64,000 nucleotides of DNA from Leptogorgia sarmentosa (Eukaryota), in the NCBI GenBank assembly GCA_964658305.1, contig OZ210885.1:15996001-16060000 (forward strand), given 5' to 3'. Each line of letters begins with the position of its first letter. Position 1 is the stretch's first letter. The notes beneath the pieces were generated by a model. It worked only from the letters and a program-made list of their open reading frames with translations, did no database searches and had not been told where the DNA came from. The position numbers were made by a program, and so were the translations under genes. Shown here piece after piece: positions 16,701-59,008 of this stretch.

Positions 16701-17042
16701 TCGAGCTGTTTGTAAAAGAACCGTTCTCGACTTATTGTTCGCTTTACTAGTTGTGACACTTGTCGTGGTTACTTGATTAGTGTCGTCTATACGTTCCTTG
16801 GTGGATCTCTTTGGTAGGTCTGGGGTGGAGGTTTTCGCATTGGGGGCTCGATCACAAATGGATTGATGATGTTTACCACCACAGTGTCGACAGTTCTTTG
16901 CTGAGTTGCATTCTCTTGATTTGTGGTTGGTTTTCAGACAAACAAACAACGACCCGCCTTTCGCAGTATTTCCTTGCGATCCTTTGCTTGAGGAATATCT
17001 GTGCATGATGCTGAGTAATGTTCGGAATTGCAATAGACACAA
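13785..17042 (-). CDS. BEL/Pao pol (CCHC knuckles, aspartic protease, RT, RNase H, start of integrase zinc finger)
   Basis: LFDNGSQRSY, YLPHHGV, ADIEKAF, LVFGLRPSP, LYVDD, FSDA, TIPRLELLGA, NPADLAT. Homology stops at HERIKHS (~13785). Confidence 0.92.
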
Positions 17043-17980
17043 CGTGGCTTGTAATCACCAGTGAATAACGAGTTCGCTGTCGGAATTTCAGGTTTTGGGC
17101 GAAATTTTCCATTGGACTGTCTGTTCACCTGACTAAGCTCGCTTGATTCTCTGGCTGCTACTTCTCTTTCGATTACTTCCAACAATTCATCAATCTTCCA
17201 CACTTCGCTAGTAGCCTTCCTCGCCACATGCAATCGAATCTCAGTGGGTAATTTTTCCATTATGACCGGTATTAATAGGCTCCCATACTGATCAGCGGAG
17301 ACTCCTAGTGATGCCAGTCCGTGAATATGCACACTGATCTTGTCATAGACATAACGAAGCGATGATATACGATCATTCGTGCAAGCGGGTAACTTTAAAA
17401 GCTCATCCATATGACTTGTTATAACTTGCTGAGTTCTCCCAAATCGTTTGCGCAATATCTCAACTGCCGAATTGTAGTTGTCAGCAGTGAGAGATAGGCC
17501 CTGTATTGATCTGGCTGCCACACCCTCTAGCAGGGAATTTAAATAGTTGAACTTGTCAATAGTAGATAGGATGGGGTTTTCATGCACGGCAGTTTTGTAT
17601 GAGTCCCAAAATGATGCCCATTGTGTTACATTTCCTTTAAATTTATTTAAAACGAGTTTCGGCAATTTTGCTCTCACAATTTGACTGGGTAATGTTTGAT
17701 TTGATCCGAGTGTTTGTGTTTCCACTTGACTCGTCGAAAATGAATCATTGACCGGCAATTGGCTTATGGGCTCAACACCCGGGATAGTGCTTTGTGCCGA
17801 GGGTTCAACAGCCGATGACGTTGCATGCAATGTTAACGTTTGAACACCGTCTAAAATATCCTCTTCATTTACATGCAATTGCTCGCTCGTTTTTTCAGAT
17901 TTATTCGATTCCGGTACCTTGCTCACCTTATCACTTGGTTTAACCGCTAACGCGGCAGAAATAGCTCGTTGAATATCCAA
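16934..17980 (-). CDS. BEL/Pao gag (DUF1759-like), 5'-deleted
   Basis: KLPKLVLNKFKG, FWDSYKTAVH, DKFNYL, CVYC..H..C zinc knuckle. Frameshifted relative to pol. Confidence 0.88.
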   Translation of the reverse strand: MDIQRAISAALAVKPSDKVSKVPESNKSEKTSEQLHVNEEDILDGVQTLTLHATSSAVEPSAQSTIPGVEPISQLPVNDSFSTSQVETQTLGSNQTLPSQIVRAKLPKLVLNKFKGNVTQWASFWDSYKTAVHENPILSTIDKFNYLNSLLEGVAARSIQGLSLTADNYNSAVEILRKRFGRTQQVITSHMDELLKLPACTNDRISSLRYVYDKISVHIHGLASLGVSADQYGSLLIPVIMEKLPTEIRLHVARKATSEVWKIDELLEVIEREVAARESSELSQVNRQSNGKFRPKPEIPTANSLFTGDYKPRCVYCNSEHYSASCTDIPQAKDRKEILRKAGRCLFV

Positions 17981-17995
17981 TATTCGCGATTTTAT

Positions 17996-18097
17996 TTCTT
18001 TCCAATAACAACCATTTATTATACACTTTTACACGTGCCCATAAATTACATAAATTACAACAATTAACATACTTAACATAAATTTAGAGTTCTTACA
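17996..18097 (-). repeat. Truncated 5' LTR of the BEL element
   Basis: Near-identical to 9932-10024 apart from a ~10-bp duplication. It abuts gag directly, so the LTR end, PBS and gag start are missing. Confidence 0.88.
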
Positions 18098-21470: not shown

Positions 21471-22768
21471 ATGGTGCCCACCAGTACATATCTCGTGTTA
21501 CTTCTCATGTCTACAGTTGTGTGTTATCAGTTAAATATTCTCAATTTGTTGCTTGTTTTCTCAAAGGTGCGTAAAGAGAGACTAAGAAATTTCATGCTTA
21601 GTCAGAATATGATGAAAATGATGATTTATGGTAGAAAGATTAGAAAACCTAGAAAGAAGAAACAATGGTGGGTTGCACCTGGGCGTACTGATAACTGGTG
21701 GATAAGGATGACCTCTGGGGAAGCTCCTCCTGAAGAATGGAATAATAATTTTCGTATGAGTAGGGAAAATTTTGTGGAACTTATCAATGAGTTACGGCCA
21801 TTCATCACTACTGACCCAAATTCTCCTCGACTGATCTTGAAGACACAGCAACTTTAAAGATGACAGCCAATGCATTTGGGATTAGTGTACCAACAACTTC
21901 TAAATGTGTGAAGAATGTTTGCAAAGCCATAAAAGATCATTTAGGTCCAACGTATATAAAAATACCAGCTGATGATGAACTGACAGATTCTATAAAGCGT
22001 TTTGAAGATGAACTAGGTTTTCCACAGGTTTTAGGTGCTGTTGACGGAACACATGTGCCAATTCTGCAACCAAATGAAAACAGCCATAGTTTTTTCTCTT
22101 ATAAAATGAAATATACATTGAATGCACAAGCTGTTTGTGACTCGTCTGGCAAATTTATCGATGTTGAAATTCGATGGCCAGGAGGCACACATTATGCCAA
22201 AGTTTTTGCTAATTCTGGAATTAACAGAGCGCTAAAAGAAGGGACTATTCCAAAAAGGCCAAGATTTTTGCTACCAGGACGAGATGCTATACCATTACTT
22301 TTGTTGGCTGACCCTGCATACCCTCTACTTCCCCACTGCATGAAAGAATATTCAACCTGCTACACAAATGAACAAGTTATCTTTAATCAAATGTTAAGAA
22401 GTGCTAGAAATAAGGTAGAGTGTGCCTTTGGAAGGCTCAAGGCTAGGTGGCAAGTTCTCACAACACTAGTAAACCTGAAATTGGAGGATATCCCAACCAT
22501 AATTTATGCATGCTTTGTTCTGCATAATTTCTGCGAAAGACACAAAATTCAAGTCGACAATACTCTAGTACAGAGGCAGCTTGCAGCTGATGCTGAACAG
22601 CAACCTACTTCATTTGAGAACGGTCAAATTAAAAATCAGTACTTGTTTTTGAAATCCAAGTACATTGTGTGCTTACATCTTGAGAACCCTATAACATACA
22701 GATCCCTTCATAAACTCAACATGAAAAATTTCAAAACTAGCTATTCTTCAAACTTTAAGTTAACATAA
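21471..22768 (+). pseudogene. Harbinger (HARBI1-like) DDE transposase, broken near 21830-21860
   Basis: NFRMSRENF, GAVDGTHV, WPGGTHYA, LADPAYPL, ARNKVECAFGRLKARW, CFVLHNF. Confidence 0.9.
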
Positions 22769-22835
22769 ACCTAGATTTCCACTTACAATTACAAGTAAAT
22801 AAGAATAATCCATGAATAGTTTATGGTAAAATATT

Positions 22836-24005
22836 TCATACGTCTTCATTACTATTGGTTGTGTTTGAATCACTGTAAGGACTAATTGATCGGAATTCAT
22901 ATCTTGTGATTGGGCCTGAGTGAAAGGCATTATAACTTGGCTGAGGGTAAGACAAATTAGCTCCATTTTGTTGGTGAGATAGGACCTGGTTGATATTTCC
23001 TGGCATTGGGTATTGTTGAGGAAATTGCTGTTGGCTTTGCTTATTAACTGTAGCTAGATGATTGAAACCAGTCATAATAGCATGACTTAACATCTGCATG
23101 GAATCTGCTATCTTCATCAAAGCACTTGAATCTGCATTTTTACTACTTTCCTCCAGTGACATCTTTTTTTTCTTAATGGATAAATCTTCTTTCATTAATT
23201 GTAACATAGCATTATCCCGTTGTTTGCTTTGCTACTCAGATTTTTTTCCAATTTTTTCCGTTTCTCATCAACATACAAAGCAGTTGGGCACTTTCTTTTT
23301 TTTTTGCTCTTGACCATTTTCCTCAAGATGTTTATCAATATCATCGTGGATAGTATCTTCAAATCCAGTGCCCAAATGCATGCCACCTTCATCCTCCCAA
23401 AGCTTATCATGCTCTTTAATTGAATCAGCATTGACATTGTTTTCAGTGTCGGGTTGGACACCAGTTAGACTGCTTTCTCCATATTCTAAGGGGACAGTGC
23501 CAGGAGCACCACCCCAGATTTGGATAAGAGAGTCGCAGTGTTCTTTAATAACTCTTCCACTTCCAGATCTAGTACCTTCCAGAACAGCCTTTTGGAATGA
23601 GGAACGAATTTTCTTGATCTTTGCTTTAACTCTATCATAACCAAGTTTCATTGACTTTTGATCTTTGTCAAATTTGTCCTTGAATGTTTTGTACTCTTCT
23701 TTAGACATCTCACTCACATCTGTTGTTGCCGCAATGTATTCTACTGGGCCAAAATTGTCTTCATCGTATCTCTCAGCCATGTGCATCCGTATATCGCCAT
23801 ATAATTGAACTAAATCCTCTTCAAAATCGATTCCTTCGCCTTCCTTATCTACTTTATAACTTAAAAGGCACTCTGCCAAACATGCTGTCATCTCATCATC
23901 AAAAATCCACCGTTTATTCTGTTTAATTTCGCTGTTGTCTTTAAATTTTTTAGTAGCCTTGCCCTTGCTCGCCATTTTGTTTTTGTACATTGCTTTTGTG
24001 CGCAT
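22836..24005 (-). pseudogene. Harbinger second gene (Myb/SANT-like DNA-binding protein), frameshifted near 23240-23270
   Basis: RWIFDDEMT..L..YK, GTRSGSGR, IWGGAP and a Q-rich tail. It lies inside the TIRs, convergent with the transposase. Confidence 0.8.
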
Positions 24006-24899
24006 GTGTTGTTTAGTATTTCGAACCGGTTTGAAATGTACTTTGTGTTTACATTCATGCCAGTCTGAACTCGTACCGGTTTGAAGTCAGTCGGCTCGGT
24101 CTAGCAGGCGGTATGACTTCAGACCAGTCTGAGTTATTTTCGTCTCGGTCTCATGTAAACATCTATTATAAATAATACTATGACCGAAACTAACTCGTCC
24201 CGGTTTGACTTTGTGCCGGTCTCATGTAAACAGGGCCTTAGAGTCCTTAGTAACTTTCGCATGTCTCTTTTATTTTGCTCTAAACCCTATAAAATAATAG
24301 TATGTGTTGCCAATGTTTTGATCATGATTGTTGCTGCTGTGTGTAACACAGCAATACCCCAAGGGCAATTTTTATTTGGAGACCTCTCCCAGCTGACCAA
24401 GGACATTGGCAAAACTAACAAGCTCACCAAAATAGTTTGTCCATCACAGTAATGCATGGCCGCTCTAGAGGGGCATTTATTAACTTTAGCCGTCAACAGA
24501 AATATAATCATATGTAAACAAGAAGATGGAACACTAACACAGCGTGAGCCAATTACGTTAGTGACCTGTTACTAAGCATGATTATACAAAACTTCACAAC
24601 TTAGTTATAACTTAAATATCTTGCAAACAAGAATATAGGCTAGTATAATCCTTTTTATCCAAAGTAGAGAGAGAACGTAAAAATTTCGGAAATTGGGAGA
24701 AAAAATGACAGAATTGTGAAATGGGGTTAATGCGAAAATGTATACAGATTATGTATCCTTCGATGAAGTAAGGCGAAAATGGCGAAAACCCAACTCTACA
24801 TCGGATAAAGTGAAGTATACTAAACTGAATAATTGCGAAGATAACTAGTACAATTAAGAACAACATTTCATCGTTGCGGTAAGCTGCCTGGCTTTATGG

Positions 24900-32616: not shown

Positions 32617-32779
32617 ATGGACGTTATGTGCGTTATATGCGTTATAGACGTTATGGGCATTATAGACGTTATGTGCGTTATATGCGTTATAGGCGTTATG
32701 TGCGTTATAGACGTTAATGGGTGCTATGTGCGTTATGTGCGTTATAGGCCTTATAGACGTTATGGGTGTTACGTGCATT
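32617..32779. repeat. 9-bp tandem repeat, left part (GCGTTATAG/GCGTTATGT variants)
   Basis: Same unit as 42120-43015. Interrupted by the Zator-like insertion. Confidence 0.9.
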
Positions 32780-32968
32780 GGCATATTGCATTTTATATCC
32801 ATACACCCCCTGTTGAGGACATGTGTTCTGAAACCGACACCCTCCTGGATTTTCCAAGCACTTTTTCCTTTAATCCCTGGAAAATTGGCTTTATTTGTAA
32901 GGGATGCCTGGAATTCCAAGATTTTTCAGTTGTTAACCCTTGGAAATGCAATTTTACAACATTGGGCT

Positions 32969-33197
32969 GGAATTCCATTGTGAATTAAGATTGTTCTTCC
33001 CTGGATTTCCTTACCAAACTTGCAATTTCCACATGGGCTCCTGGAATTCCATTGTCATTTAGATTGCTCTTCCCTGGATTTCCTTACCAAACTTGCAATT
33101 TCCACATGGGCTCCTGGAATTCCATTGTCATTTAGATTGCTCTTCCCTGGATTTCCTTACCAACCTTGCAATTCCTACATGTGCTCCTGGAATTCTG
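32969..33197. repeat. ~73-bp subterminal tandem repeat (~3 copies)
   Basis: Unit GGAATTCCATTGTCATTTAGATTGCTCTTCCCTGGATTTCCTTACCAAACTTGCAATTTCCACATGGGCTCCT. Confidence 0.9.
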
Positions 33198-33703
33198 GGC
33201 ATCTAATGTAGGTCCCCATGGAAATATGAGCTTTTTTAGCCCTCCCCCAGATTTCCTCACTAAACAATTATCTCCAGTTTGCCCTGCCCCACCCCTCCTA
33301 CCTTCCACAGTTTAATGTCTCAAAAGACAATTTGCGATATGTAACCATTGTACTTTACCCAAAATTTTTTATATATCTTTACAACGTATGATGAATTAGT
33401 TAAGATAGAGTGTCCAATACAGCTAGCACATAAAGCAATAAACTTTCTCACTTATGGTGGTATAATATTGCTGCTATATCCCCTGACCACAATTGCTCCA
33501 CCTACTTATGTAAAAAACATTGATACACTGGTGCGTAAATAAGTTTATTAACGCAAAGTTTATTAACGCAAAACTTTACACTATAGATGGACTGTATAGT
33601 AACATACCATGTGGTAATACCATGCATGCGATATGTTTCTACATGCTAATGTTTATCATAGTCTTAATAACAAAGTCAACGAAAAGTTACGCAAATATGA
33701 ATG

Positions 33704-34645
33704 TTACTTTAAACATTCTGATAACAGTGCCTTTTTAACACCAAGATTTTTTCGTAAAGTATCTTGGGCTTTTCGGAGTTCGCTCATCGAAGAGTCCAAT
33801 GATGATTTTGCTTTTTTCAACTTTATTTTTATCTCTTCTCGGCTAACCAAATCTTGATTCCGCTTTAATGTTTGTGAAAGCGAACTAACTGTTTCTCTCA
33901 GGCTTTGGGTGCTTATATTTGCTTCCCGGACTCTTTCAAGATTTTTTGATATAGTCGTCTTTTTGCTTTTAGGGACTTGCCAGTCAGGATTCGATGTCAT
34001 TCCCTCTGCGCTTTTGATACTTTCCTCCAGTTCTTGAACTTTTTTTGATTCATTTTCAAGGAGACAGCAATGTTCGATTTTCCAGAGCTCGTTGATTTGT
34101 TTGTATATTTCGCTTTTACTAATACTTCTATCTTTGGCCAATTTTTTAACTTGCTCGTTCCAAAAGCAACGATATTCTTTCTCATTTCCTTTCCCTTTCT
34201 CTATTTCAGCATTACTATACACTTTTAAATTTCTCAGTTCGACATCCGATAGACGACGTAGTTTGGGAATTTCAGTGGAGTCAGTTGTTGATGTCACTTC
34301 ACTGTCCAACGTAGACGACACTGCAAAATTCTCCTGAAGGTTAGGCAAACTTGTGCTTTCTGCAAGCGAATCTTTAACTTTGTTCTCACCGAAGGACAAA
34401 TATATCATCAGAAATGATTCATCATCGCTTGTTAGCGCGATGTTTCGAACCATGACAGAACTTTCTTGCGATCTCGATATATTTACACCATGGTGCTGGA
34501 ATTTATAGTTATTCGACGAAATAATATCGGCCACTTGTTGCGATATCACACCTCGTATTTCACTTAAAAGCATATCTACTTTAATATCAAATAAAATTGC
34601 TACAGCCGTTTTATCATGAGCAGCATCTATCAATTTTATATCCAT
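33704..34645 (-). CDS. Uncharacterised cargo protein 1 (putative ubiquitin-like N-terminus, helical domain, coiled coil), 313 aa
   Basis: Intact intronless ORF with an ATG start. Paralogous to 35287-36312 (ISRSQE/ISPQQE; EKEYRCFWN/EKERRIFWN; ELRKAQ/ELKSCQ). Confidence 0.75.
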   Translation of the reverse strand: MDIKLIDAAHDKTAVAILFDIKVDMLLSEIRGVISQQVADIISSNNYKFQHHGVNISRSQESSVMVRNIALTSDDESFLMIYLSFGENKVKDSLAESTSLPNLQENFAVSSTLDSEVTSTTDSTEIPKLRRLSDVELRNLKVYSNAEIEKGKGNEKEYRCFWNEQVKKLAKDRSISKSEIYKQINELWKIEHCCLLENESKKVQELEESIKSAEGMTSNPDWQVPKSKKTTISKNLERVREANISTQSLRETVSSLSQTLKRNQDLVSREEIKIKLKKAKSSLDSSMSELRKAQDTLRKNLGVKKALLSECLK

Positions 34646-34993
34646 AATTTCGAAGGTTTTTACGAAATTGTTTTAACTTGGAACAGCTACTTTTGTTGCG
34701 AGAGTAAACAGACGAATAGGTATGTTGTTCCATAATTATTTAGGCCCGTTCTATAAATAACATGTGACATTTGGTCAGTTTTTGTAAACACAACATGCTG
34801 TAAAATTTAAAATTTCTTTTGCGGCTTTTTTCCCGCACTTATATTAATAGGTATATATGCCAATCTGGTTGATAAAACTAGGTTTTAAAAAACTATATAC
34901 ATATAATTATACGGTATTTTTTTGCGAATATATCGTTTTTAATGTTTTCTGGGCGGCTTGTAATCAGACGCGCTTACAGGAAAATACCGAGAG

Positions 34994-35149
34994 CGGAGTC
35001 CGTCTGTAAAGTGTTTTTAGACATACCGGTCCATTGAATGGACTCCGTCTTTTCCACTTTTATAGGCAGAAGGTAACCCTAACCCTAACGAGACGGATTC
35101 CATTCAGAAGTTTCCAGTATGTCTAAAAACACTTTATAGACAGACTCCA
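34994..35149. repeat. Small inverted-repeat element with a (TAACCC) tract, between the divergent cargo genes
   Basis: GGAGTCCGTCTGTAAAGTGTTTTTAGACATAC versus GTATGTCTAAAAACACTTTATAGACAGACTCC, with TAACCCTAACCCTAA at 35074-35088. Confidence 0.7.
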
Positions 35150-35286
35150 CACTCCGTAATCCTCACTCCATTTTTCCACCATGCTGTCAATTGGCTTCCT
35201 TGGCAAATAGCCAATCAAGTGTTAAGTAAAGCTTGTAAACAATAAATTCAGCCGCATCAAAATCTGTAGAATTCAAGGAAGTAAAT

Positions 35287-36312
35287 ATGCTTGCAAGAAT
35301 AACTTTCGTCGGCCAAGATGGACAAAAATATGGATGTCTGGAAAATGTTGACGAGACACAGACACTGTCGCATGTTCGTAAAAGTGGATATAGGTTTCTC
35401 AACAACATCCTGCCGGAGGCATACACGTTTACATGGAAGAATACCCCAATATCACCTCAGCAAGAAGAGATTCTAAAAGTTTCACGATGTTCCAAGGTAG
35501 TTTCACAGCAGCCCCGAGCACTGGAACTATCCATAAATGTGAAATGTCAAGGAAATTCTTCATCATCAGAACGATCCAGGGTTACATGTAACTCGGTTCC
35601 AGACATAAGCCAGTCTGTATCTGGAAATGTTTTTGTTGGAAATGAAAATGAATCGTCAAATTTAAGATCAGGATTGGAGCTCTTTCATGAAAATGAGATT
35701 CAAGATCCGAAAATACCAACAATGGAAAAGGAAAGAAGAATTTTTTGGAATTTGTTGGCTAGCAATATTTGTTCCCAATCACAGTTTCGAGGGTGGAGTT
35801 TGCAGGCAGTTAATGGTTTGATTGACACTGAGTGGACGTTGAGGAAAACAGAATTGCTAAAAATAGATGCAGATCAGGAAATAAAAAATATCCGCACCCA
35901 AAATGCGGAATCCGAAAAAACGGATAAAAGAGAGAGTAAAATTGAACGAATATTACAAAAACTGTTATTGCTAGACGTCCAGCGTAAAAACGTTTACAAG
36001 AAAATTGAAGGACTTCATGCACAATTGAAGCACATAACAACTGATCGTACAAGTTTTCAGGAACAGATAGCCCTAGAGGAAGATAACTTAGATAAAGTTA
36101 TTACCGAACTTAAATCATGTCAGTCTAGCCTAGAACAGAGCATTGCTAGTTCCCTAAATCGTACTGAATACACAGGAGTAGACGATTCTGCAAAAACCTC
36201 CAATCAAACAGAGGCTAGAAGTGAAGTATTATTAAGTGATGATGAATTTGAGGAAGTGAGGCAATCAGTAGTCGAAGATTATGCCGTCGACAATGTAACT
36301 GATATGAACTAA
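35287..36312 (+). CDS. Uncharacterised cargo protein 2, paralog of 33704-34645, 341 aa
   Basis: Intact intronless ORF with the same motif order as cargo protein 1 and an acidic tail. Confidence 0.75.
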   Translation: MLARITFVGQDGQKYGCLENVDETQTLSHVRKSGYRFLNNILPEAYTFTWKNTPISPQQEEILKVSRCSKVVSQQPRALELSINVKCQGNSSSSERSRVTCNSVPDISQSVSGNVFVGNENESSNLRSGLELFHENEIQDPKIPTMEKERRIFWNLLASNICSQSQFRGWSLQAVNGLIDTEWTLRKTELLKIDADQEIKNIRTQNAESEKTDKRESKIERILQKLLLLDVQRKNVYKKIEGLHAQLKHITTDRTSFQEQIALEEDNLDKVITELKSCQSSLEQSIASSLNRTEYTGVDDSAKTSNQTEARSEVLLSDDEFEEVRQSVVEDYAVDNVTDMN

Positions 36313-36774
36313 AAGGGTTGGTGCTAGGACGTTTATGTTCATGAATACTATAGTAATAGGAAAGTTGAAATTTCGTTATATCATATCAAGTATTTAATTT
36401 AAATCATAGATTTTGAAAACATTTGTATCCGTATCAGTTTAGGCGTTTGTTAAAACATCCGCGTTTCATAATATTGGATAAAACGCAAATAGGCGTTCTT
36501 CCTCCAGTTTGGTGAACATTTTTAACGCATATTCGCGTTTTGTTCAAAAACTTAAAGCATAAAACACGGACATGACTTGTAAAGGCACAAGAAGCATTGC
36601 TTGATGCAAAAGTGAGTCATCCGACTGTCGGCCTTCATCCGTACGTCCGTATCCGCCTTTAATCCTAACCTTATCTGAAATCAACAAGTTACAAGTATAA
36701 GTTAATAATTAGCTACTCATGCAATGTTATAGAATTTATGTCAATTTAAAAAAAACCGTCTTTCTAAAAGCTGC

Positions 36775-39700
36775 TTGTTTCGCTTTGTGGGAGATTTTAC
36801 AAACCTTTGCTGCATTGATAAGTTGAGAATGATAGCGAAATCCTCTATTTGTTCAAGAGCTTTGTCTGATCTGCACGATTTGTCAAAGACGAAAACATTT
36901 ACAGAGTTTGCCGATCTCGCCAGCGCATTAAAGAGTGTTTATCTGCCTTTGAAAGTGAGTCAAGTAGGCACATTGTCTTTTTCCGCATCCCGGGTTGACA
37001 CAATATCAGATAATTTGCTTCCAGAGCATTACAAACAAGATTACGCGAAACCAATTAAAACCACAGCAGATGGAAATTGCCTGTTTAATGCTGTTAGCTT
37101 GGCGTTGACCGGTTCAAAGAAGCTGAGCGCCGAACTTCGTGTGCGTACAGCAATTGAACTTGCTACTAATTTGGAATTTTATAAAAATCATCCAAATGTG
37201 GCCAAAGGCATCCCAAAAAGAACTGATAAAAACGAAATGAGAAGCATTTCTTCAGTATATTATGTTGTAATATTTGGAAATGTCGCTGCAAAAGTTTTCG
37301 AAACAATTGACTTCGGTGCTGCCATCCAGCAAGAGATTAAAACTACAGCACTTAATGGATCTTATTCTGGTTTGCTTCAGATAATGGGTCTTGCGACGGT
37401 GATAACGGGCGAAATTCATTTGATTTATCCGGACACAAAACATGAAATGCTCAGCCTTTTAAATGGCATATACTTGAGTAGAGAATGTACCGGAAATGGA
37501 GTACGTCCATTCACAACAATAATGTGGACAAATCTTACTGGTTGGCCTGATCGTTCCAAGTCTTTAAACGTAAATCATTTTGTTCCAGTTCTTAAGGTCT
37601 CTACCCCATGTTCATCACATAAAAACGCGGAACCAAGCAACTGGTTTTTTGTACATAAGAAACGAAAACATAAAACGGCGAAAAACAGTTCTAGTTTTAC
37701 ATGTGAAGGTAAACCTTCAAGTTACTCGCAAATAAAACCGCATGAAGAAAAAGGTTCTCAGAACAGAGCTTCACCAAGTCTAACACCTATGAAAAGGCAT
37801 AAGCAGGTTACGGAAGATTCAAATAACAAAAAAGGAATTAGAAAAAAATTCAAGCCGCAAATGCCGTTTCTCAGCCAGAAATGGTTCGAAACAAGAGTTG
37901 AGAACAATCCAAAGAGTAGAAAAATTAATAACAAATCAAGCAATTTATGTCCGACGATGACTCTTTTGTCAGAAAGATTTTATCGTTCAGTCAGCAATAA
38001 TATATCTGACACCGCGGTTGGCCCACTCAATACCCATTCAAAACAAACTACTAAAGCCTGCAGAGGGGAAGGGTATGACATACATGATAAAAGGAACAAC
38101 ACAGCGCACCGGAGCAACTCAGACAATAGATCATCTAACGTAAATTACCAAGATTGTAGTAAAAATGAGCACGAGGACAGAAGATCTAGAATGTTTCGAT
38201 TTAGTTTTTCCTTATTGCCCGAGCAATGGTTCGTACAAAGAGGGAAGCTAATTAGCTCAAGTGAAAAGAATACTTGTGAACATTGCGATTCCACTGCAAA
38301 TATCACTGCAACAGATTCTCACCATACTTTAGAAAACCATGGACTAACGGAAAAATCTGTGTATCAATTGGAATTTGAACAAAGTATGCCTTTATTGACC
38401 AGTAAGTGGTTTATCAGAAGGGGACGTTTGGCTAGTAAAAACAGATCACGCACAAGGCAATCACAAACTTTTGACAAAAGGGTAAATGAGAAAAACAGAG
38501 TTATCGGCGTTAAAAGAGGTGAAAAACACATAGAAGGTACCATTGAGGATAATGCTAAGGTACTAGAACAGCAAATTGAGAATGAAACGAATCAGGATAA
38601 ACGTGCGGAGTTGTATGCAATAAAGGCAGTAGCAATGTTTTTAATGGAGTATGGACCAATCATTTCGACGCAACTCGCTGGAAAAGTTCACAGAGACTCA
38701 AAAAATGAATTTCTCAATAATTTGGAAACCAAATCAAAAAAACGCACCTCTAGTAGTCTATTTTTCAAATTTTCACGACATCTTGATATTCAACAGATCT
38801 ACATACAAGGAAAAGCCTATATTGTCGAGAATCGTGTAAAAAATGTGGAACATCTTGTAAAGTGTTTGAAGGATATGATGCCATCAAACAACATTGTCGT
38901 AAACAATCACTTGCAGGAAAAGTTAGAAGATGTTTTTCAAGACTCGTTGCGCTTACTGGATACAAAGCGAGATCGCGATATTCTCAAAGGCATTTTTGCG
39001 AATGCCACAAGTATTAAATTTACGGCCAAACTTCAGGGAGTAAAGAACAGGACAGCGATTGCAAACTGCAGAGCTGAACTACGTGAAAACATTGAAAAAT
39101 TCCGCAACATTGAACGAACTTCATTGGTGGTCAGTAATGCCATGACAAACGAGCAACAGCGACTTTTTACCAGGAGAGTAATTCAAAAAAGAAAACAAAA
39201 AGAATTTAAGTGCAAATTAGATTCAAGGGGAAGAATGCTTAAATGTGAGCAATGGAAAGAACTTGCGAATTGCCTCGAATATTTTTCTGATAACCAAGAC
39301 GTAACTGAGCGTGCAGGGGAGGGATTAGAAACGCATCCTAGGCTCAAGAACGAAATTCGTTTTCGAAGTAAAGACAATAACACTTTTATGCGACAAGCCT
39401 GTCATATCATTAATAACATCTCACCTCCATCCTTCAATATTTCGTTGTCGTCTTGTTATAATTACACAATGACATATAAAGAGAATTCTGCCGCTGCAAG
39501 AAGACACCACCACGGTATGGGTGTAAATGCCAAACTGTCGCTTCGTCGTCCTTCGCACACCAAGGTGGACAAGTTGGTCATAAATCTTCACTATAGTTCC
39601 GCTAACGTTAATTATTTATGTGACTATGCCGCCAAGTTTTCTGAAAACGTGCTGGTCGATTCCAAAGACGCCAAGAAAATCGTATGTGGCGATATCACGC

Positions 39701-41822
39701 CAGTCCAAAAACCAGGTAGAATGTGGAAAGTTGTGGAATATCCTGACCATGACTGGAATCAGAGTCGTACAAACGCCGTGACACCAATGACTCACTTATT
39801 TCTACGAACAGACATCATTCATCAGGAATCTCAAATAAGCCGACTGCTAATGAAGACATACTATCACCCATTTCAGATACAGTCCTACATATAACAAGAA
39901 CAGGCACATCTGTGACACTTATTAACCCATCATTACTAGAACCTGAGACAACATTCAGGCTTTTTCATGAAGTGTTTTTATTATTAACAAAACCATCGCT
40001 GGATAAATTCTTTCGAAATCCAAATACTGGGAACTTGAAAAGCGAATTTATATTTGTAGTAGATAATGGACCCGCTGAGGATCCGTCTAGTCCTCTGGTT
40101 CAGATGCTAATGGCCAGAATGCTTAAATTCTTAAAACTTGACAAAGTGATCCAAGTTTCGTTCGCTGAATATCACAGCAAGCGTAATTTTGTCGAAAGAG
40201 TCCACGCCGTGGAAGACAAATTGCTTGCTCGCCACGGACCATTTTCATCACATGCCATTCATAGTAATATTAATATTACTCCAGGTTCGCAAGAACATGT
40301 AGAAAATATGGAAAATATGAGTGAAGCCGTTATAAATTGTTTGAAGCAAGGGCGATATGACGGCCAACCATTAAATGTGTTTCGAGGAGTAACGAATTCC
40401 TCATTTATTTTTAATGATGGGGCGAATTTAAAGACTTTTTTGTCCTGCTCAGAAGAGATAAAAGAAACAGGTGAATGGACATACAACGTTAATAAAGATT
40501 CGCTTTTGTTAAAAGACCTGTCAGTTATATGGAATGTCGACGAAAATTTCGAAGGAGATTATTTTCAGGACTATCAACTTTTGAACAATTCATTGCCACA
40601 AACTGATCACAGGACGGCGTGGGTGGACAAATACATTACAGCACTATACAGAGTAAATGACGAGTTATCTCATGAGGAATTGAAAAGGTATGAATTACAG
40701 GCAATTCCAGATTATATACGCTGGTTAGAAAGTGAAGGAGAACTACACTACCTATCGAACGAACAGCTAGAGAAAGATAATGATATGGATTGGACAATGA
40801 AACCAGGACTTTTTAGACCTGACCGACTACTTAGTCTATTGTTCACTCTCAACTCACATCCGCTTGACGACATGTACAAGCACTTTTCCTTTTTAGCGTG
40901 GCTACCAGAATCAAAAACACGTGAATATTTTAATGAAAAGCGAACATCAATGCAACAAGAGCTACATGAGGACATTGCTAGAGAGAAGTGGAGACAGCAC
41001 CCTTTCTACACAAAAAAAGTAGAGGAATTAGTGACACTTTGCAAAAGGAAAGGAATATCTACCAAGGGTAAGAAGTGGGAACTGGTTGAACGCCTGGTAC
41101 AAGAAAGGGAAGGAAATATCCCTGAAGATTACTCTCCTGACTATGATGGAGATCTAAGCACGGTTCCAAACACAGTAACTGAATTACGTAAGTACCCTGT
41201 TGCAAGATTGCGCTATATTCTAAACTACCATGGAATTCACACATGCGGCACAAAAGAAGAAATTATACTACGGTTACTTCTTGTGCGTCAGAATCGTTAT
41301 TATCTGTGTTTTAAAGGAGAAGAGGAAGAAATAATGAGCACTATTTCTTTAGCAGAGAGCGTTATTGTTAGACAGAAAAGGCAACGAATACTTCAATTCC
41401 AGTATGTGAGAAAAAGAAGAACTTACACAAAGAAAAACTGCAACAACTTCCTTAATGTTCCCCAACATATCACCTTTCAAACCCTTCAAAATTCGTTTGA
41501 GGAACTCAAGGAATATATCAAAAATTTAAAGAGCATACGTTGTCAGAAAGGGAATGAGTTAAATTTCAACTTTAACCAACCATGTGGCAATCAAACAGAC
41601 AACTATGAAGATTACTTTTCTATTGGAATGAAAATTAAAGTAAAATGGAACAGGGAGGAGTTGGGAGACAGTGGCTGGACACAAGGCTGGTACTCTGCCC
41701 AAGTTCAAGAAGGGCATATTGAAGATGACACTATTAAAATTGTTTACTTTTCTGAACCTAAATGTGTATATACCCTTTCTGTTACAGACTATCTGGCATT
41801 GGGGAAGTTAAAGTTTGCTTGA
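36775..41822 (+). CDS. Vertnin-like OTU + Zator-like DDE transposase + 2 SAP + Tudor-like fusion; one frameshift near 39835-39900
   Basis: OTU: TADGNCLFNAVS..ELRVRT..IYP..IMWT..NHFVP. Transposase: SKDAKK, PDHDW, VVDNGPAEDP, SKRNFVERVH. SAP: VEELVTLCKRKGISTKGKKWELVERL and VARLRYILNYHGIHTCGTKEEIILRL. Tudor-like: IGMKIKVKW..GWYSAQV..IKIVY. Confidence 0.8.
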
Positions 41823-42119
41823 TTAACATACATGTACATACATGTGGAATCAAAATAATATTTAATATTTTTCATAGATCCCATTTTGTTATTTTGATCA
41901 ATGTGATCAATGTGTGTCGTTATTACAGCATTAACCAATAGGCATCCACACACCCCTGTAAATGGTTACATTTGCAGTTTTCCACCCCCACCCACTGGAA
42001 TTTCCATGTCAGGTCTTTTACCCCACCCCCTGGAATTTCCAGCACTAAATACAAGAGACACCCCCCAAATTTTCCAAGGTCCTCAACAGGGGGGGGACGG
42101 ATAATAAATGCAGTATGCC

Positions 42120-43015
42120 ATTATGGGCGTTATAGGCGTTATGTGCGTTATATGCGTTATAGACGTTAATGGGCGTTATAGGCGTTATGGGCGTTATAGG
42201 CGTTATGGGCGTTATAGACGTTATGTGCGTTATAGGCGCTATAGGCGTTATAGGCGTTATATGCGTTATGGACGTTATAGGCGTTATGCACGTTATAGCT
42301 GTTATGGGCGTTATAGACGTTATGTGCGTTATAGGCGTTATGTGCGTTATAGGCGTTATGTGCGTTATAGGCGTTATGTGCGTTATAGGCGTTATAGCTG
42401 TGATGGGCGTTATAGACGTTTTGTGGGCGTTATAGGCGTTATGTACGTTATAGGCGTTTATAGACGTTATAGGCGTTATGGGCGTTATAGACGTTATAGG
42501 CGTTATAGGCGTTATGGATGTTATAGGCGTTATATGCGTTATGGACGTTATAGGCGTTATGCACGTTATAGCTGTTATGGGCGTTATAGACGTTATGTGC
42601 GTTATAGGCGTTATGTGCGTTATAGGCGTTATGTGCGTTATAGGCGTTATGTGCGTTATAGCTGTGATGGGCGTTATAGACGTTTTGTGGGCGTTATAGG
42701 CGTTATGTACGTTATAGGCGTTTATAGACGTTATAGGCGTTATGGGCGTTATAGACGTTATAGGCGTTATAGGCGTTATGGATGTTATAGGCGTTATATG
42801 CGTTATGGACGTTATAGACGTTATGTGCGTTATAGGCGTTATGGGCGTTATATGCGTTATGGACGTTATAGACGTTATGTGCGTTATAGGCGTTATGGGC
42901 GTTATATGCGTTATGGACGTTATAGACGTTATGTGCGTTATAGGCGTTATATGCGTTATGGACGTTATAGACATTATGTGCGTTATAGGCGTTATGGACG
43001 TTATAGACGTTATAC
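42120..43015. repeat. 9-bp tandem repeat, right part (~100 copies, with a higher-order duplication)
   Basis: Units RCGTTATRK. A block of roughly 260 bp recurs (distinctive GCTGTGATGGG...TTTTGTGGG near 42397 and 42661). A remnant is at ~43640-43725. Confidence 0.97.
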
Positions 43016-44257
43016 GGGACTCGAGGTGGTTTTTATCTGTTCAATAACTTCCGGTTGGTTTTGTGACCATTCTTCTTCGAAGGTTGTTTGTGGTTTGGAT
43101 AAACTGTCATGCTTGAAGGCAAAAGGATGATACTCAAGGGCTGGATTTTGATTTTCGTGTAAGTACATGTTATGTTGGTTCTTGTCAAGTACTGATGTTC
43201 ACTTCATTAATTTGAAGTTATTATTGAAAATCACGGTTTATAAACATGACTGTGTCGCTATGCGTGTGCACTAATTATTTTGCAAAATGCTTACTACGTA
43301 TATCGCGGTATTTGAATGCATACGTAGTCAGGCTGTTTTTGGTACCTGTTCTAACTAAAATAGTTCACAGCTAAACGCAGCGTGTTATTACCAACCTGTT
43401 TAGACCGCACGTGGTCTAATGCAATGTGACAAACGCAATGTGAAAAACGCGGTATTGTTATATATTTTTAGATGATTTGATGTGTGAGAAGGTCAAACAA
43501 ATTGTATAGGGACTTTCGAAACATAATTTGTACCTTTGTTTTCCCAATCTTTCCATTACATCTACATGGATCTCAACCTCCAGATCGTTACCCATGCATG
43601 ATTTTGTTGGGTGTTTGCATAAATTATAGGCTGAGAACATTATGGGCGTTATTTAGGCGTTATAGGCGCTATAGTCGATACTATATATACTGGCGTTATA
43701 ACGTTGAGAGCGTTATATGCGTGACGTACATATGATTGGTTACCAGAATGATAGCGTTTATTATTACTATAAGAAATAACACTACTCGAGAATCATTAAT
43801 GAAAGATACATACATACATACATACATCGTCTTTATTTAATCACGTCTGTTTGGCGGAACTGATATATGTAGTCTAAAGCATGCCGTGTTATTATCAATA
43901 TTCGCTATACATTCACAAGTGTTATTTTTCTTCAAATATCTAGTACAAAGTTTTGTTTCCTTTTAATATCATTTCATATAAGTTTTTGAGTTTCGGTTCG
44001 GTAAAATTTGAAAGGTTTCAACTTTCAAAATTTTTTTGCGACGTAAGTTTAAATAGCGTTTAGCGTCGCATGAAAAAGTATACTTTAATTAGATAAGGTA
44101 TTCAGGAGAAATAGGAGGCATTAATGCCCTATCACATAAGTGCGCGAGTGGTGCTGCGTATATGTATATTCTAGTTTTGCTGTTAAATGGAAGGTATGTC
44201 ATAAACGGTATGCCATTCTCAAAAAACAGGAATTGATTTTTCTGTTGCAGTTGTTTT

Positions 44258-47200
44258 GTGCTGTTCTTTGGAGAAACCACACACGCAATCAGATTAGGGG
44301 AAAGAATGAAGAGAGTACTGGCAGAAGCTACTGATGAATACGAAAAGAGGCTAACAGTGTTACGTGAAGGAAATATAGTGGACCTTGGACCAAGTACTGT
44401 CACGCATCACAGACAATGTATCCATGATGTTCGAGAGGTTACCGGGGATCACTACGTTAGTTATCTGTACATATTATGGGACCCACTTAGCCAGTACGAA
44501 TCAGTTTTTAAAGCTAAAAAAATGTATTGCCCTTTATGCTCAGCTGATGGTTTTGATTGCAATGATCTCAGTCGTTTTGGTGAATGGAAAAACGGAAGGT
44601 TAGAAAGATTGAACCCAAGGGTCCTTTTTGGTACTCACAGGTGCAAATTATTGGTCAGTTGCGTATACAGGTGCAGACGTGGTCACGATGTTCCAGCAAG
44701 CCATGCAGATATTCTGGACAGATTGAGCGCAAATGCAATAAACGTCCCTTTCTTCTTGACCCACAGAAGCGGTTTCATGCACAATTTGGTTATCCTAATC
44801 GAAGACCTGATTGACTCCGGGTTAAGTTTCGAGCAAGTAGAAAATCTAATTAAAAGGCAATACAAAAGTACGTATGACCAATTTGCCAAAAACTTTTGGC
44901 ATGATATGGAGCTTTCTAAGCAAACTTCAGTCACAATACACGATGGAAATGAAGTTTCTTTCCCATCATGGGACGATGCAACGTTTCCCTTTCCGAGAAA
45001 TGACATTCTCATAGACATCTTTTTGAAACGGTTCTTCCGAGATGAGCAAATCTATATAAATGCTATGAGCAGTTTGAGTGCCGAAATGATATCATGTGAT
45101 CATACCTTTAAAAGCGCTTGCAACATCGGATACAAACGGGCTACAGATGGGTCTTGGATCAATCAATATAACTCGATTTTTTGCATTCTTAATGAACATG
45201 GACAAATTATCAACTGGCAATTTACCAAGTCTGAAGGGTTTAATGAAGTTAAAGACATGTTTTTGGACATCAAGAAACGCTCTGGAGAAAAAGTATTGAA
45301 ATATATTTGTATTGACAATTGTTGCAAGTGGAGCTCGCTATTGAAGCTTATTTTCCCAAACACCGAGGTGAAACAGGACCTATTTCATGTAGTTCAGAGG
45401 TTCGTAACAACATTGAAAAAACGAAATCCAATCCATCGCAATATAGCGTCTGATTTTGGAAAGGTTTTTTGTGACCCCCGTGATTTGGGTGACAATCGGA
45501 AAATGCCAACACTTTGCAAGGAAGTACTCTTGTCGAATTTACAATTATTTCTAGACAAATGGAGCAGTTGGCAGTGTGATGAAGTCAAACTTCTTAATTC
45601 TGAACGTTTGGCGACCATTTCCAATATTCGTGGACATATTCAGAAGGGTTGCCTTAGCGAGATACCAGCAGGATTTTCAACATCAGTTAATGAGCGCCTT
45701 CACAAGGAGATGAAAAAGTTGCTTTGCAAAAATCGGATGGGTACACAGTTAGCGTATGCAAAATTTTCACGCTTTTTTTTCAAGCATAACCAGAACCGTG
45801 CGGCATATGATTCAGTTATTTCCCTGTCTGCGAAGGCTCACAAAGAAGCTTTTCATGGAGCCAGAAATGATATAAAGCAATTATCTGTCAGTTTTGGTAT
45901 CAGAAAAAAAGACAGAGAAGTCGCTGGAATACCGCAGCTGGTTGCAGACCAACAGTGTAAAACCCAATTTACTTTGGATGAGTTGACGCCCTTAGTACTG
46001 GATGATATATCTAAAGTTATCCAGAAAGCCAAAGATCCGCACGAAGAATCTCATGTATCAAGATTACTTCAGGATCACATGTATTCAATCAACACATGGA
46101 ACACAAGGCCATGCGTTCATGTTTTACTGTATTCCTTATCAATTTTTAGAATTATTTTGCTTATGAAGGATATGTGGTCCTCTAAAGAAGAAAATGTGAT
46201 GAAGATCCCTTTTTTGTTCCAAAATAGCTTAAATGCAACTAATGCAAGACCTACGAGTTTGCCCACAAATATGACCAGCAACCACGAGATATCTAATTCT
46301 ATTGCGAACAACATCAGCAGAGAAAGTCTTAATAACATCGCCAATTCGTTTGGATTTCGTATATTACCGGTAACAGGCGACGGGAATTGCTTCTTTAAGG
46401 CTGTAGCATTTCAGTTGCTTCAAATTCTTGGTTTACCGTCGTGTCACGACAATATTGTGAACCATATTAATGCACTTGTTATATCGGGGGAAACATGTGC
46501 GGAGGAGCTTTCAATACTATTACGACATCTAACGGTTAATGAAATTCAGAGAAACTCAGAACAATACCATGTGTTTTTTGAAGACATTGATATTCTTTCC
46601 GAATGTGAACGGTTTCGTAACAGTGGAGAATTTGCCGGGCAATTAGGTGACACAATACCTCTAGCAATGATGAACGTCCTTCAGATCCCAATTGTTGTTT
46701 TGACCGCCGTGCACAATATGCCTTTTCTATCATTGGCTCCTCGTGTGAATGTCGACCATGACATGGTGATCTACCTATCTTATATTCAGGAGGGCCCTGG
46801 GCATTACGATGCGCTGGTCACATCTGAAAACTCAGCAGAAACCACACTGCAAGAACTGTCTGACTTGGCAAAAGGTATTTAAATGAACATTGATATATAC
46901 TGTAATTATATAGGTGCCTGAAAGACTCGAACAGGCATATGGGTGACCGTGAAGTTAACTTAGGTTTGCTAATATGTCCTAAATAATTATTGAAAAAAAA
47001 AAAATTTTAACTGACTTAATTGCTACTCGATTATACTAAATTAGCTCATGATTTTGCAATTTTAGAATAACTAGCTTATTACCCTTAATTGACCTCGCTT
47101 GTCATATGGCAACCTGTCTAACGCCAGATGATTCTACTCGTCAAGCAGTGACTTCCCACCTGACCTATAAAGGGATAAATGAAATGAACATCCCTTATGC

Positions 47201-52178: not shown

Positions 52179-52648
52179 GTAACCTTAATATGGCAGCATG
52201 ACAAGGACTCCCAGGAACGATTCGTATTGTGGAATATTATCTGAGGAATCAATTTTAATTGAAAATTGAAGTGTTCTTTTGCTAACACAAAGCCCAGACC
52301 CCAATCCCATTGAGAATTTGTTGCGGAGCCAGAAGAGAAGACTAGATATGAAATGTTCATCTCGAATTGAGGAGTAGTTATTTGAGGAGTCAGGGTTGGA
52401 AGAATAACAACCATGAATACGTTCATAAACTTGTCTAGAACATCCTTGGGTGAAGTCCACAGATCATCAAAGGTTGCAGATATCATATTGCTTACCAAAT
52501 GTTGTGTTCTTAGAGTGAAATAGGACTATTTCTCTACATCTCATTTGTCGTGCAATCCTTTTTTTACGACATAAGGAATATGACTTGTATAAACCTTGTT
52601 TATTTCTGTGTGAGACAAGGGGGCTCTTTTTGTTTTGGCAACCCCCTG

Positions 52649-56129: not shown

Positions 56130-58950
56130 TTATTTCCAAAGCCTAGACATTTGTAAAACTAATAAATTTCCATCAACATAATCATCCTCAAGCTCAAGTA
56201 TAGTCAAAAGAGATTTTTTGATTACTTTATTAAATCTCGTTTTACCAAACTCACACACATCAGTAGAGATATTGTTCCATACTTTAGCTCCAAACCTCAC
56301 AAATGATGTACTTACTTTACTGAGTCTCGAGTATTTAATGTAAAAATTGTTTGATGCACAATGTCTGGTATTATAGTGGTGGATTTGTCGTGAATGAGTA
56401 AAACAATCCGAAATTGAAGATGGGCACGAATTGTTAAAAATTTCATGCATTAAATTACCAATAGTTTTATAGTAAAGCATATATAACGGTAATATTTTTA
56501 ATTTAACAAAAAGTGGAATTGCATGTTCTTTGCAATTTTCAAAGCACATTAATCGCAAAGCCCTTTTCTGTAATATAAGAATTTTATCTAAGTATTTCTT
56601 CGAGGTATGTCCCCATACAATTATACCATATGTTAAATAAGGCAGTATTAAACAGTGATATATGCTATTTAAAGTTGATAGAGGTACAAAATGTCTTAGT
56701 CTTGCAATTATACCAATAGCTTTACTTATTTTATTGGCAATATTATCTATATGGTATTTCCATGTAAGGTTGCTGTCTATAATAACTCCCAAGTATTTAA
56801 CAAATTCTTTAGACTCAATTTTGACAAAATTGTTACTGTTATTGTCAAACACTTTTATATTAACTTGATAATTTTGCCTTTTTTGATAAGGTCGAAATAT
56901 TACATAATTTGTCTTACTCAGGTTCAATGTCAGTTTGTTTGAATTAAGCCATTCACAAACCAACATCAACTCTTTATTAACGACTATCTCAAGAGAATTC
57001 AGATTTTTATCAGCATATAGTATATTTGTATCATCAGCGAATAAATAAAATTGGAATAGCTTAGACGACATGCATATATCATTTATATATATCAGGAAAA
57101 GAAGAGGGCCAAGAACTGAGCCTTGTGGGACGCCATATTTACTGAATTCTTTTGTAGATATATTGTCTGCAGATTGGGTTGTCTGTATTCGACCAGTTAG
57201 ATAAGATTTAAACCAAATATTAATAATACCTCGAACACAATAATGATCTAATTTGTATAGAAGTATGGAATGATCGACAGTATCAAATGCCTTTTTCAAA
57301 TCTAGAAATATTCCGCAAGAAAACATCTTTTTCTCCATATCAGTCTGAATGTTGTTCACAATATCTATTAATGCATGTTGTGTTGAATACTTGTCTCTAA
57401 AGCCATACTGTTTTTCATACAAAATTAGATTTTTTTCAAAAAATATCTTAAGGCGTTTATACATTAATTTTTCAAATATTTTGCTAAAATTAGAAAGTAA
57501 TGAAATTGGTCTATAGTTTTTTGGTTCGAGTACATCATTATCGTTATAAATAGGAATTATTTTAGCATATTTTAGCTTTGAAGGGAATATCCCATTCTGG
57601 ATTGAAAGATTCATTATTTCTGCCAATCGACAGGATATATGTTCTTTTATACATTTTAGTATATGTGTATGGCAGGAGTAAATCCCAGTCGCTTTACCAT
57701 AAGGAATTAACTTGATTTCAAATTCTACTTCAGAAGAGGTAATAGGGGTAAAAAAGAATGAATTGGGATAATTACTATCATTAAAATAGTCACTAAAATG
57801 CTTGCTTGAATTAGGCATTTTGGAAGCTAATTTCTCGCCCACGGATGAGAAGTGTTTATTAAAAATATCAGGAATTTCCGTGGGATTGGAAATTATTTGA
57901 TTTCTGACAGGACATCTTATTTTTGTAATTATTTTCTGATTACTTTTTTTATGATTTATTAAATTATTTATGGCTTCCCAGGTTTTCTTCATATTTGTAA
58001 TATTATTTTCAAAGAATTCCTGAAAATAAAGCTTTTTACTCATTCTTACTAAATTAATTATTCTGTTTCGATATAATTTATATTTATCTTTATTTCCAGA
58101 GTAAAATAATTTATTTTTTATTTTAATAGATCTTCTAATAGCCTTAGTTATCCATGGTTTAGCAGATTGTTTTATCTTACGTTTGGACATATTTTTAAGA
58201 GGTGCATGTTTATTTGTTAATTTATTTATTTTATTGTAGAATGTCGAAAATAAACTATCTATATTTTCTTTTTTACTGTCGATAACAGACTTCCAATCAA
58301 TTTGCATTAAGTCATTGTTAAGATGTGACTGTGAAAAATGTGAAAAATCTCTTACTTTACTCTGACGATGGGCCTTTGTCTTAATAATAGATGACTGAAT
58401 AATACAAAACTGTGAGAAGTGGTCGCTAATATCAGAAACAATATTTCCACTTAAGATTGAATGTTCGATTTTGTTGACAAAAATGTTGTCAATCAATGTA
58501 GCTGAGTTATTATAGACTCTAGTAGGCTTGTCAATGGTTGGAATTAAAGCATAACTTTGGAGAGTTGATAAAAAATCTTGTGCATATTTACAAGTTTGAG
58601 CCTTGAGGAGGTTTATGTTGAAGTCACCCATTACGTATATAGGCTTATTCGATCTTAAAGCACTAAATTTGTCCAAAGCATTTTCAAAATATGTTTGAAA
58701 CAGTTCAGGAGTGTTATGTTGTCTATAAATCACTCCAATGATAATATTTGCTTTATTAGGCAGTATCTAAATTAAACAGCCCTAAGTCACACATACTAGG
58801 GTATTTATTCAACTGTTTCATAGTGGGAAGAGTTAAGCAATTACTATTCAGGCTGTTGTAAGAAGGGATTAAATTAGTATTATAAAACGGAAGTTCCTGC
58901 ATTAACGATCGAATAGATTGTAAATTATTTTCATTATATTTTTCACCCAT
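56130..58950 (-). CDS. LINE ORF2 (AP endonuclease partly deleted near 58745; reverse transcriptase)
   Basis: MGDFNINLL, TLIDNIF, ISDH, NYRPISLLS, FLDLKKAFDTVDH, GVPQGSVLGPLLFLIYINDI, FADDT. 867 aa remain open. Confidence 0.92.
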
Positions 58951-59008
58951 AACTATGTATAATCAAATAAAATATATATTTATATATACTTATCTTTAGT
59001 ATACGGAA

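Follow-up and report, generated by a model that had tools for sequence, protein, structure and literature searches.

A 9.3-kb element at positions 32780-42119 was analysed in a 64,000-nucleotide stretch of Leptogorgia sarmentosa DNA (contig OZ210885.1; hereafter the window). The element is probably a decaying copy of a DNA transposon family that is widespread in marine animals, is bounded by terminal inverted repeats (TIRs), is closest to Zator, has a 3-bp AWT target and encodes, besides one or two accessory proteins, an OTU-DDE-SAP-SAP-Tudor protein. Cut-and-paste transposition is likely the task of the DDE core of this protein, its OTU domain is likely a deubiquitinase and its SAP and Tudor domains are likely chromatin tethers.

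Element boundaries and the target rule

The element is enclosed by TIRs of 41 bp with GG..CC ends, 35 of the 41 bases being identical. The left TIR (32780-32820, plus strand) starts with GGC and the right TIR (42079-42119, minus strand) ends with GCC; both are directly flanked by the trinucleotide ATT (32777-32779 and 42120-42122). The surrounding host DNA is a 9-bp minisatellite of the GCGTTATAG type (32620-32779 and 42120-43040), which is split by the element. When 0 to 8 bases were removed from the empty site, only the removal of 3 bases restored the period of the minisatellite (21/27 and 28/36 matches), while the remaining eight offsets gave 5-9/27 and 5-13/36 matches. The 3-bp duplication of ATT is therefore not due to chance, and the precise boundaries proposed in a preliminary description of this DNA (41-bp TIRs, GG..CC ends, ATT duplicated) were confirmed by the sequence and by the phase test. 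Alternative ends, TG..CA with a 2-bp duplication, were incompatible with the sequence around the window element and around the relatives L015 and L022.

Across the family, the comparison covered seven separate large insertions in which the two TIRs are present. Six showed perfect 3-bp duplications (in element orientation, ATT in two, AAT in three and AAA in one), the exception being L015, which is flanked by AAT and ATT. The assembly G001 additionally contained nine short elements bounded by these TIRs, all nine with a duplicated target (AAT in five, ATT in three, ATG in one). Combined, a 3-bp duplication was found in 15 of 16 family insertions, comprising 13 AWT, one AAA, one ATG and no TWA. 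The suggestion of a non-canonical target was thus borne out, as AWT rather than ATT alone. The ends of the seven large insertions were GG in five (the window element and four G001 copies) and GT in two (L015 and L022/L029).

Inside the left end, three copies of a 73-bp tandem repeat with the CTGGAATTCC-type motif could be observed in subterminal position (32984-33202, plus strand). This motif had eight matches in the left 521 bp versus none in 5 kb of the gene, and the repeats are a possible binding array for the transposase. Read-contig depth was flat across the element body and of the same order at the junctions, which agrees with a low copy number but does not quantify it. The left TIR (window 32777-32947) was also matched at 85-90% by further contigs from this species, with different flanks (ending in ATT and TAT), indicating that related elements or miniature inverted-repeat transposable elements (MITEs) lie elsewhere in this genome. 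A nested, MITE-like insertion of 170 bp (34987-35156), flanked by TA and built around a core of TAACCC repeats, forms an inverted pair between the accessory genes. It has loose ends and a high read depth, i.e. it is multi-copy in the reads, and probably stands outside the transposon system. A short stretch of similar minisatellite, judged from the translation, was also seen near 52200-52300.

The transposase gene and its relationship to Zator

The long gene consists of two overlapping frames on the plus strand, 36733-39894 and 39753-41822. With seven unknown bases added at 39839, it is open for 1,666 codons from the ATG at 36829, so that the single gene with one break seen earlier was recovered, with slightly fewer codons than the approximately 1,680 first given. 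The break is a 7-bp deletion in this haplotype (39836-39842, plus strand). Seven additional bases at 39836-39839 were present in contigs of the runs X5, X6 and X7, which represent three samples of one study, and the frameshift is accordingly absent from other samples, its absence from other copies being a check that had been proposed at the outset; X7 carried another 3 bases and a separate 1-base loss at 40371. The short form at 39839 occurred in X1 and X3, which come from a single sample that may be the source, and also in a second X5 contig. This makes an assembly error at the position unlikely, although X1-X3 may all represent the source sample. Further losses comprised 1 base at 41012 in X1 and X2 and 27 bases at 37570 in X1 and X4. 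The long gene is therefore a single open reading frame (ORF) with breaks that differ between haplotypes, as at a decaying locus; the window haplotype is frameshifted and probably inactive.

All domains of the gene lie on the plus strand. The N-terminal OTU-type protease domain (36829-37614) has its catalytic Cys codon at 37078 and its His codon at 37576. A family OTU profile matched OTUD1 (E 1.3e-5), OTUD7B (E 1.8e-5) and VCPIP1 in the PDB, as well as OTU clusters in the Atlas. The catalytic Cys and His motifs were kept in all of the 22 family OTUs (out of 30) that cover the Cys, the other eight records beginning downstream of it, and the domain is predicted to be a likely deubiquitinase. It is followed by a linker (37861-38430) with three copies of the motif P-x-L-x3-W-F, at 37861, 38206 and 38386; the last copy is conserved family-wide and the relative P0003 has additional copies. 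A conserved, mostly helical region (38450-39640), likely to bind the TIRs, precedes the Zator-related DDE core (39658-40200; D 39658, D 40062, E 40194, D-to-E spacing 44). Two SAP domains follow at 41016-41290 (PF02037 in two stretches, E 1.7e-9; found in 17/21 homologs), and the protein ends with a Tudor-fold domain with conserved aromatic residues (41610-41822, stop codon 41820-41822). No Pfam match was obtained for the Tudor domain. The C-terminal domain in the model of homolog L015 resembled the Tudors of Spindlin1, SPF30, SMN and PHF1 (Foldseek probability 0.96-1.0, E 0.18-0.46), and seven aromatic columns were conserved in the alignment. For the L015 model (predicted local distance difference test, pLDDT, 78.7), the best Foldseek matches were Mos1 and Metnase. 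The OTU, two SAP and Tudor-like domains named in the preliminary description were therefore recovered by PDB profile matches, PF02037 and Foldseek on the homolog model, respectively.

A homolog search covering proteins of 1,153-3,290 amino acids (aa) yielded 52 homologs, the named ones deriving from Exaiptasia and Paramuricea. The DDE core was present in all 52, a SAP region in 47, the Tudor domain in 40, an OTU domain before the DDE core in 29 and all four in 20. Fusion of OTU and transposase, as first noticed in the window, is thus a family trait. Separate insertion of the two was ruled out, the fusion being ancestral to the family (29/52). Intact single-frame relatives were P0002, P0003, L007 (1,885 codons) and L081 (2,282 codons). 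Metagenome contigs contained 68 family loci. Five more family matches occurred in oversized assemblies with bacterial titles, amid minisatellites and eukaryote-type transposons, and these would represent host DNA and not bacterial members. G001, G002 and G003, all titled as bacterial metagenome-assembled genomes (10-20 Mb), contain eukaryote-type transposons, MITEs and minisatellites, which are probably host sequence within these records. In G001, three copies that are about 99% identical were located at different sites with both genes within the TIRs, indicating that whole multi-gene elements were recently mobile in some host. Two G001 copies carried a 346-bp inverted-repeat element inside the DDE core (L079:11727-12072 and L080), which occurred again in the OTU region of L080. 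Searches of viral contigs revealed no relative of the DDE core or of canonical Zator, tblastn against plasmids gave one chance match only, and NCBIfam gave nothing relevant. In 16 pairwise comparisons of the accessory, OTU, DDE and Tudor regions, the ratio of nonsynonymous to synonymous divergence (dN/dS) was 0.09-0.42 in seven, and synonymous divergence (dS) was saturated in nine. The OTU domain, the Tudor domain and the accessory genes are under purifying selection.

The DDE core was named by neither Pfam nor NCBIfam. Zator, a superfamily reportedly introduced by Bao et al. in 2009, is characterised by a TWA target and 5'-GG termini and is usually described with a single transposase gene. 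The family and Zator share the order of the DDE motifs, a DHD motif after the first D, the IS630-Tc1-mariner fold, short TIRs mostly starting with GG and a 3-bp duplication. The D-to-E spacing was 44 in 48/54 family proteins, equal to the published Zator profile, while that of TP36 is 43. Positions 140-190 of the Zator hidden Markov model in the supplement of PMC5751038 could be aligned by eye to the window without gaps, 16 of the 51 letters of the consensus being shared. In three assemblies the sole outside match of the family profile was a canonical Zator (E 2.7e-4). This Zator scored 21.8 bits, versus at most 2.1 bits for TP36, IS630, MULE, hAT, Chapaev-like and Harbinger sequences and 20 shuffles; partial Zator pieces scored at most 6.3 bits. 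The element, L180:5620-9491, is 3.9 kb long and has GG ends, perfect 33-bp TIRs and a TTA duplication; the same features, with TAA/TTA targets, are given for Zator-1 of Branchiostoma in the available text of PMC12905397. L180:5620-9491 also has a cysteine-rich C-terminal frame. HHalign comparisons with TP36, IS630, MULE, hAT and Chapaev-like profiles were all weak, the best being IS630 at probability 6.7. The bacterial TP36/ISAzo13 transposases (PF07592) belong to the broad group that also includes the family and have a similar first-D motif. No significant profile match to them was obtained: the HHalign probability was 0.6 (with shallow profiles), and PF07592 was found in 0/21 members.

A DDE tree was built from 15 family members, three Zators (two of them partial), nine TP36 and seven IS630 sequences. 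The family was monophyletic (98/97), its long stem measuring 2.16 changes per column, and was sister to the Zators at 93/95, with long branches. The phylogeny proposed in the preliminary description thus placed the family beside Zator, with a sister support that was unstarred and came from three Zators; the HHalign comparisons detected no specific link to TP36. Zator is the nearest known group by spacing, bit score and tree. The TWA target and the single-gene feature failed, and for these two reasons the family was not filed as a plain Zator; 'Zator-related lineage' is a safer label than 'Zator'. Apart from its AWT target and GG or GT ends, the family differs from Zator in its TIRs (39-42 bp versus 33 bp), its transposase of 1,400-2,280 aa with OTU, SAP and Tudor domains, its element size (8-14 kb versus 3.9 kb in the canonical copy), its conserved accessory gene and its longer D1-D2 distance (117-139 versus 106).

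That the family is a derived branch within known Zator diversity, already catalogued in Repbase, is possible but less likely. Spacing and motif order are as in Zator, the tree contained only three Zators, and Zator support was just 73% in a large survey, i.e. the group is diverse. The long, well-supported stem, the longer D1-D2 distance, the AWT target, the GT as well as GG ends and the TIRs of about 40 bp, for which no description was found in the open-access literature searched, argue instead for a lineage beside Zator.

Accessory genes and the distribution of the OTU type

Two further ORFs noted in the preliminary description were confirmed as genes inside the TIRs, making this a multi-gene element. 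Accessory gene A (33704-34645, minus strand; ORF 33704-34672, 322 codons) encodes 313 aa, with a ubiquitin-like fold at aa 1-86, a linker, a helical W-N-W domain and a coiled coil. Accessory gene B (35287-36312, plus strand; ORF 35239-36312, 357 codons) encodes 341 aa and is a divergent paralog of A. The ORFs are arranged head to head, and their products were 17-18% identical in the family alignment with invariant I, W, N and W residues; pairwise BLAST of A against B was on its own not significant. No Pfam domains and no informative name were found among 18 accessory homologs, and the ESM Atlas gave no usable match for A. The model of A (pLDDT 79.8) showed an N-terminal ubiquitin-like fold followed by a helical domain and a coiled coil. 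Its ubiquitin-like domain resembled SUMO, ubiquitin and Elongin B (Foldseek probability of about 1, E 0.018-0.1) and that of USP7 (Z 8.8, root-mean-square deviation 3.0, 81 residues aligned). A di-glycine after this fold was absent in 13 of 14 homologs checked. A and B are paralogs of an unannotated conserved family with a ubiquitin-like fold, a point absent from the preliminary description. For a resemblance of the W-N-W domain to an HMG box, no PDB or Pfam support was obtained; the VIA rows mainly cover the coiled coil and hardly bear on this domain.

Of 24 loci whose upstream sequence extends over 2.5 kb or more, 19 contained an accessory gene, in every case on the strand opposite to the transposase. 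In L001, L024 and L026, as in the window, it was joined by another copy that lies on the transposase strand. In G001, which had not been used for building the profile, all four genome-wide accessory matches lay inside TIR-bounded copies. Within the accessory family, dN/dS was 0.23-0.42 or dS was saturated. L001 also contained, at 6804-7610 between the accessory genes and the OTU-transposase, an ORF opening with an F-box-like motif (by eye), a third ubiquitin-pathway module.

The OTU profile matched 5,412 representatives at E 0.001, including hAT, MULE and PHD proteins. Among 32 long OTU matches scanned, five contained Helitron domains and one each MULE, hAT-type DUF4371 and DDE_1 domains; several other OTU-bearing proteins are, judged from their motifs, presumably Chapaev-like. 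In the OTU tree, hAT and Chapaev-like OTUs were interspersed among those of the family, whose label had to change five or more times on starred branches, a count inflated by fragments labelled 'other'. Large transposases with SAP and a cysteine protease domain are known from Zisupton/KDZ, Zisupton having an 8-bp duplication and a SWIM finger. The present family is likewise large with SAP and cysteine protease domains, but belongs to another DDE family, and no 8-bp duplication or SWIM finger was seen. Two window ORFs, 342-1865 (minus strand) and 44237-46882 (plus strand), presumably encode KDZ-like transposases; each has a C-terminal OTU-like motif of another type and did not match the family OTU profile. 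Other elements of the window, assigned by motif and taken here to be a BEL/Pao-like retrotransposon (10230-18028), a Harbinger-like two-ORF element (21815-24086) and ORFs resembling long interspersed nuclear elements (56130-59836), lie outside the transposon.

The label 'vertnin-like', given earlier to the OTU domain, derives from motif resemblance and from one automatic name, 'Vertnin', on homolog P0048. No vertebrate name was found among 53 OTU matches, most rows of which were unnamed; the best 150 of the 5,412 matches carried no names, and ten that were looked up gave none. In the available text of PMC10318531, VRTN is an inactive OTU homolog, and in that of PMC3024977 it has a transposase-like helix-turn-helix. 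VRTN and the family share the OTU-like domain; VRTN is a single host gene with an inactive OTU, whereas the family OTU keeps Cys and His. The expectation that this lineage would be especially informative on the origin of vertnin was not supported, as the same OTU type occurs on Helitron, hAT, MULE and other transposons. For vertnin, the question thereby shifts from this transposon to which transposon, and the present lineage is one candidate among many. OTU domains on transposition enzymes have been published for Ginger1 and Helitrons (PMC2836005, PMC9741609). In these elements, too, an intact OTU-type cysteine protease is fused to a transposition enzyme. They differ in their unrelated integrase or Rep-helicase cores and in the C-terminal position of the Ginger1 OTU, and the available parts of both papers describe no ubiquitin-like accessory gene.

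Proposed mechanism and significance

The ends, the duplications and the fold argue for cut-and-paste by the DDE core at AWT. In the proposed mechanism, the helical middle region would bind the TIRs and the subterminal repeats, and the RNase H core would insert at AWT with a 3-nt stagger. The OTU domain may strip ubiquitin from the transposase or from break-site chromatin, which would keep the transpososome from being degraded or from drawing repair signalling. Tethering of the enzyme to chromatin (DNA, methyl marks) is likely the part of the SAP and Tudor domains, the aromatic cage of the latter possibly reading methylated lysine or arginine. The accessory protein, with its integral ubiquitin-like domain, lack of a terminal di-glycine and coiled coil, could be a non-catalytic adaptor or regulator of the protease-transposase. 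Chromatin reading and ubiquitin editing, which had been proposed at the outset, are suggested by the folds, the catalytic residues and the selection.

Several observations weigh against this interpretation. The contigs that restore the frame all come from the one study and have a depth of 5-6. The PF02338 match of the window gene (E 0.001) was under the Pfam cut-off. The Foldseek E-values are weak, both for the ubiquitin-like domain of A (0.018-0.1) and for the transposase (0.018 and above), the latter with a model of homolog L015 and not of the window protein. The accessory gene was missing from 5 of 24 loci, and in L078 and L081 no ubiquitin-like domain lies in frame with the accessory ORF. 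Among the 19 loci with the gene, six had helped to build the profile; many loci are near-duplicates, leaving about eight distinct sets. The sister relationship to the three canonical Zators, two of them partial, was unstarred, and its alternatives were not rejected by the approximately unbiased test (p-AU 0.22 and 0.06).

The main rival is compatible with the proposed mechanism and not exclusive of it. According to it, the domains form an anti-silencing kit, in which the Tudor domain would bind methylated arginines of the PIWI pathway or repressive histone marks, while the OTU domain and the accessory protein would disarm ubiquitin- or SUMO-dependent silencing. This appears possible, if on the unlikely side. 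The Tudor model resembles readers of methyl-arginine (SMN, SPF30) and of methyl-lysine (Spindlin1, PHF1, UHRF1), the accessory fold resembles SUMO, ubiquitin and the ubiquitin-like domains of USP7, and transposon groups without relationship to one another carry the OTU type, which a general counter-defence would predict. Such a role for transposon deubiquitinases is also suggested in the available text of PMC9741609, according to which transposon OTUs had not been tested. The Tudor model does not, however, single out one ligand, and the fusion of all domains to the integrating enzyme agrees at least equally well with action where the element integrates.

A processing protease, with the OTU domain cutting a long precursor or a ubiquitin-like fusion instead of deubiquitinating host substrates, is improbable. 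The N-terminal position of the domain, the long, variable, low-complexity linker with its three short conserved motifs and the presence of viral polyprotein OTU-type domains among weak PDB matches would agree with it, but the same domain is C-terminal in the Chapaev-like proteins, its nearest solved relatives are cellular deubiquitinases, and nearly all homologs checked lack a di-glycine after the ubiquitin-like domain of the accessory protein. It is equally doubtful that the accessory genes are passively captured cargo without a role in transposition, as their absence from five loci and the presence of other cargo in some relatives, e.g. the F-box-like ORF of L001, might suggest: position and orientation are fixed even between families that share only about 40% identity in their accessory proteins, where dS is saturated and dN/dS takes the values given above, all four G001 copies lie within elements, and no named host gene occurred among the 18 homologs.

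No Zator with an OTU domain, a Tudor domain, an AWT target or an accessory gene was described in the available text of the open-access literature searched (including PMC7386202, PMC8533490, PMC4455052, PMC11071193, PMC12239620 and bioRxiv 2021.09.26.461848), Repbase and Bao 2009 lying outside the search; prior cataloguing of the family is possible. Each domain type is precedented on other transposons; what appears new is their joint presence with a Zator-type core, together with the AWT target and the accessory family. A more far-reaching proposal, speculative and rather unlikely as it stands, is that the family forms a separate, superfamily-level sister of Zator in corals and other marine invertebrates. 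It would be a two-component machine, made up of a transposase equipped with a deubiquitinase and a methyl-mark reader and of a ubiquitin-fold adaptor, dedicated to this transposase, which would represent a new protein family and dock on the enzyme or regulate it; the lineage would follow an AWT rule of its own and have many dependent MITEs. If true, it would provide a compact, testable model for the manipulation of ubiquitin signalling by transposons, and the lineage would be one of several candidates for the pool that supplied vertnin by domestication.

For the Zator group, the family extends the range from small single-gene elements to multi-gene elements of 8-14 kb with a different target rule, and MITEs that are flanked by AWT and share these ends become assignable by curators. 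The selected family of ubiquitin-fold accessory proteins beside an intact OTU domain offers a handle on why DNA transposons keep acquiring deubiquitinases.

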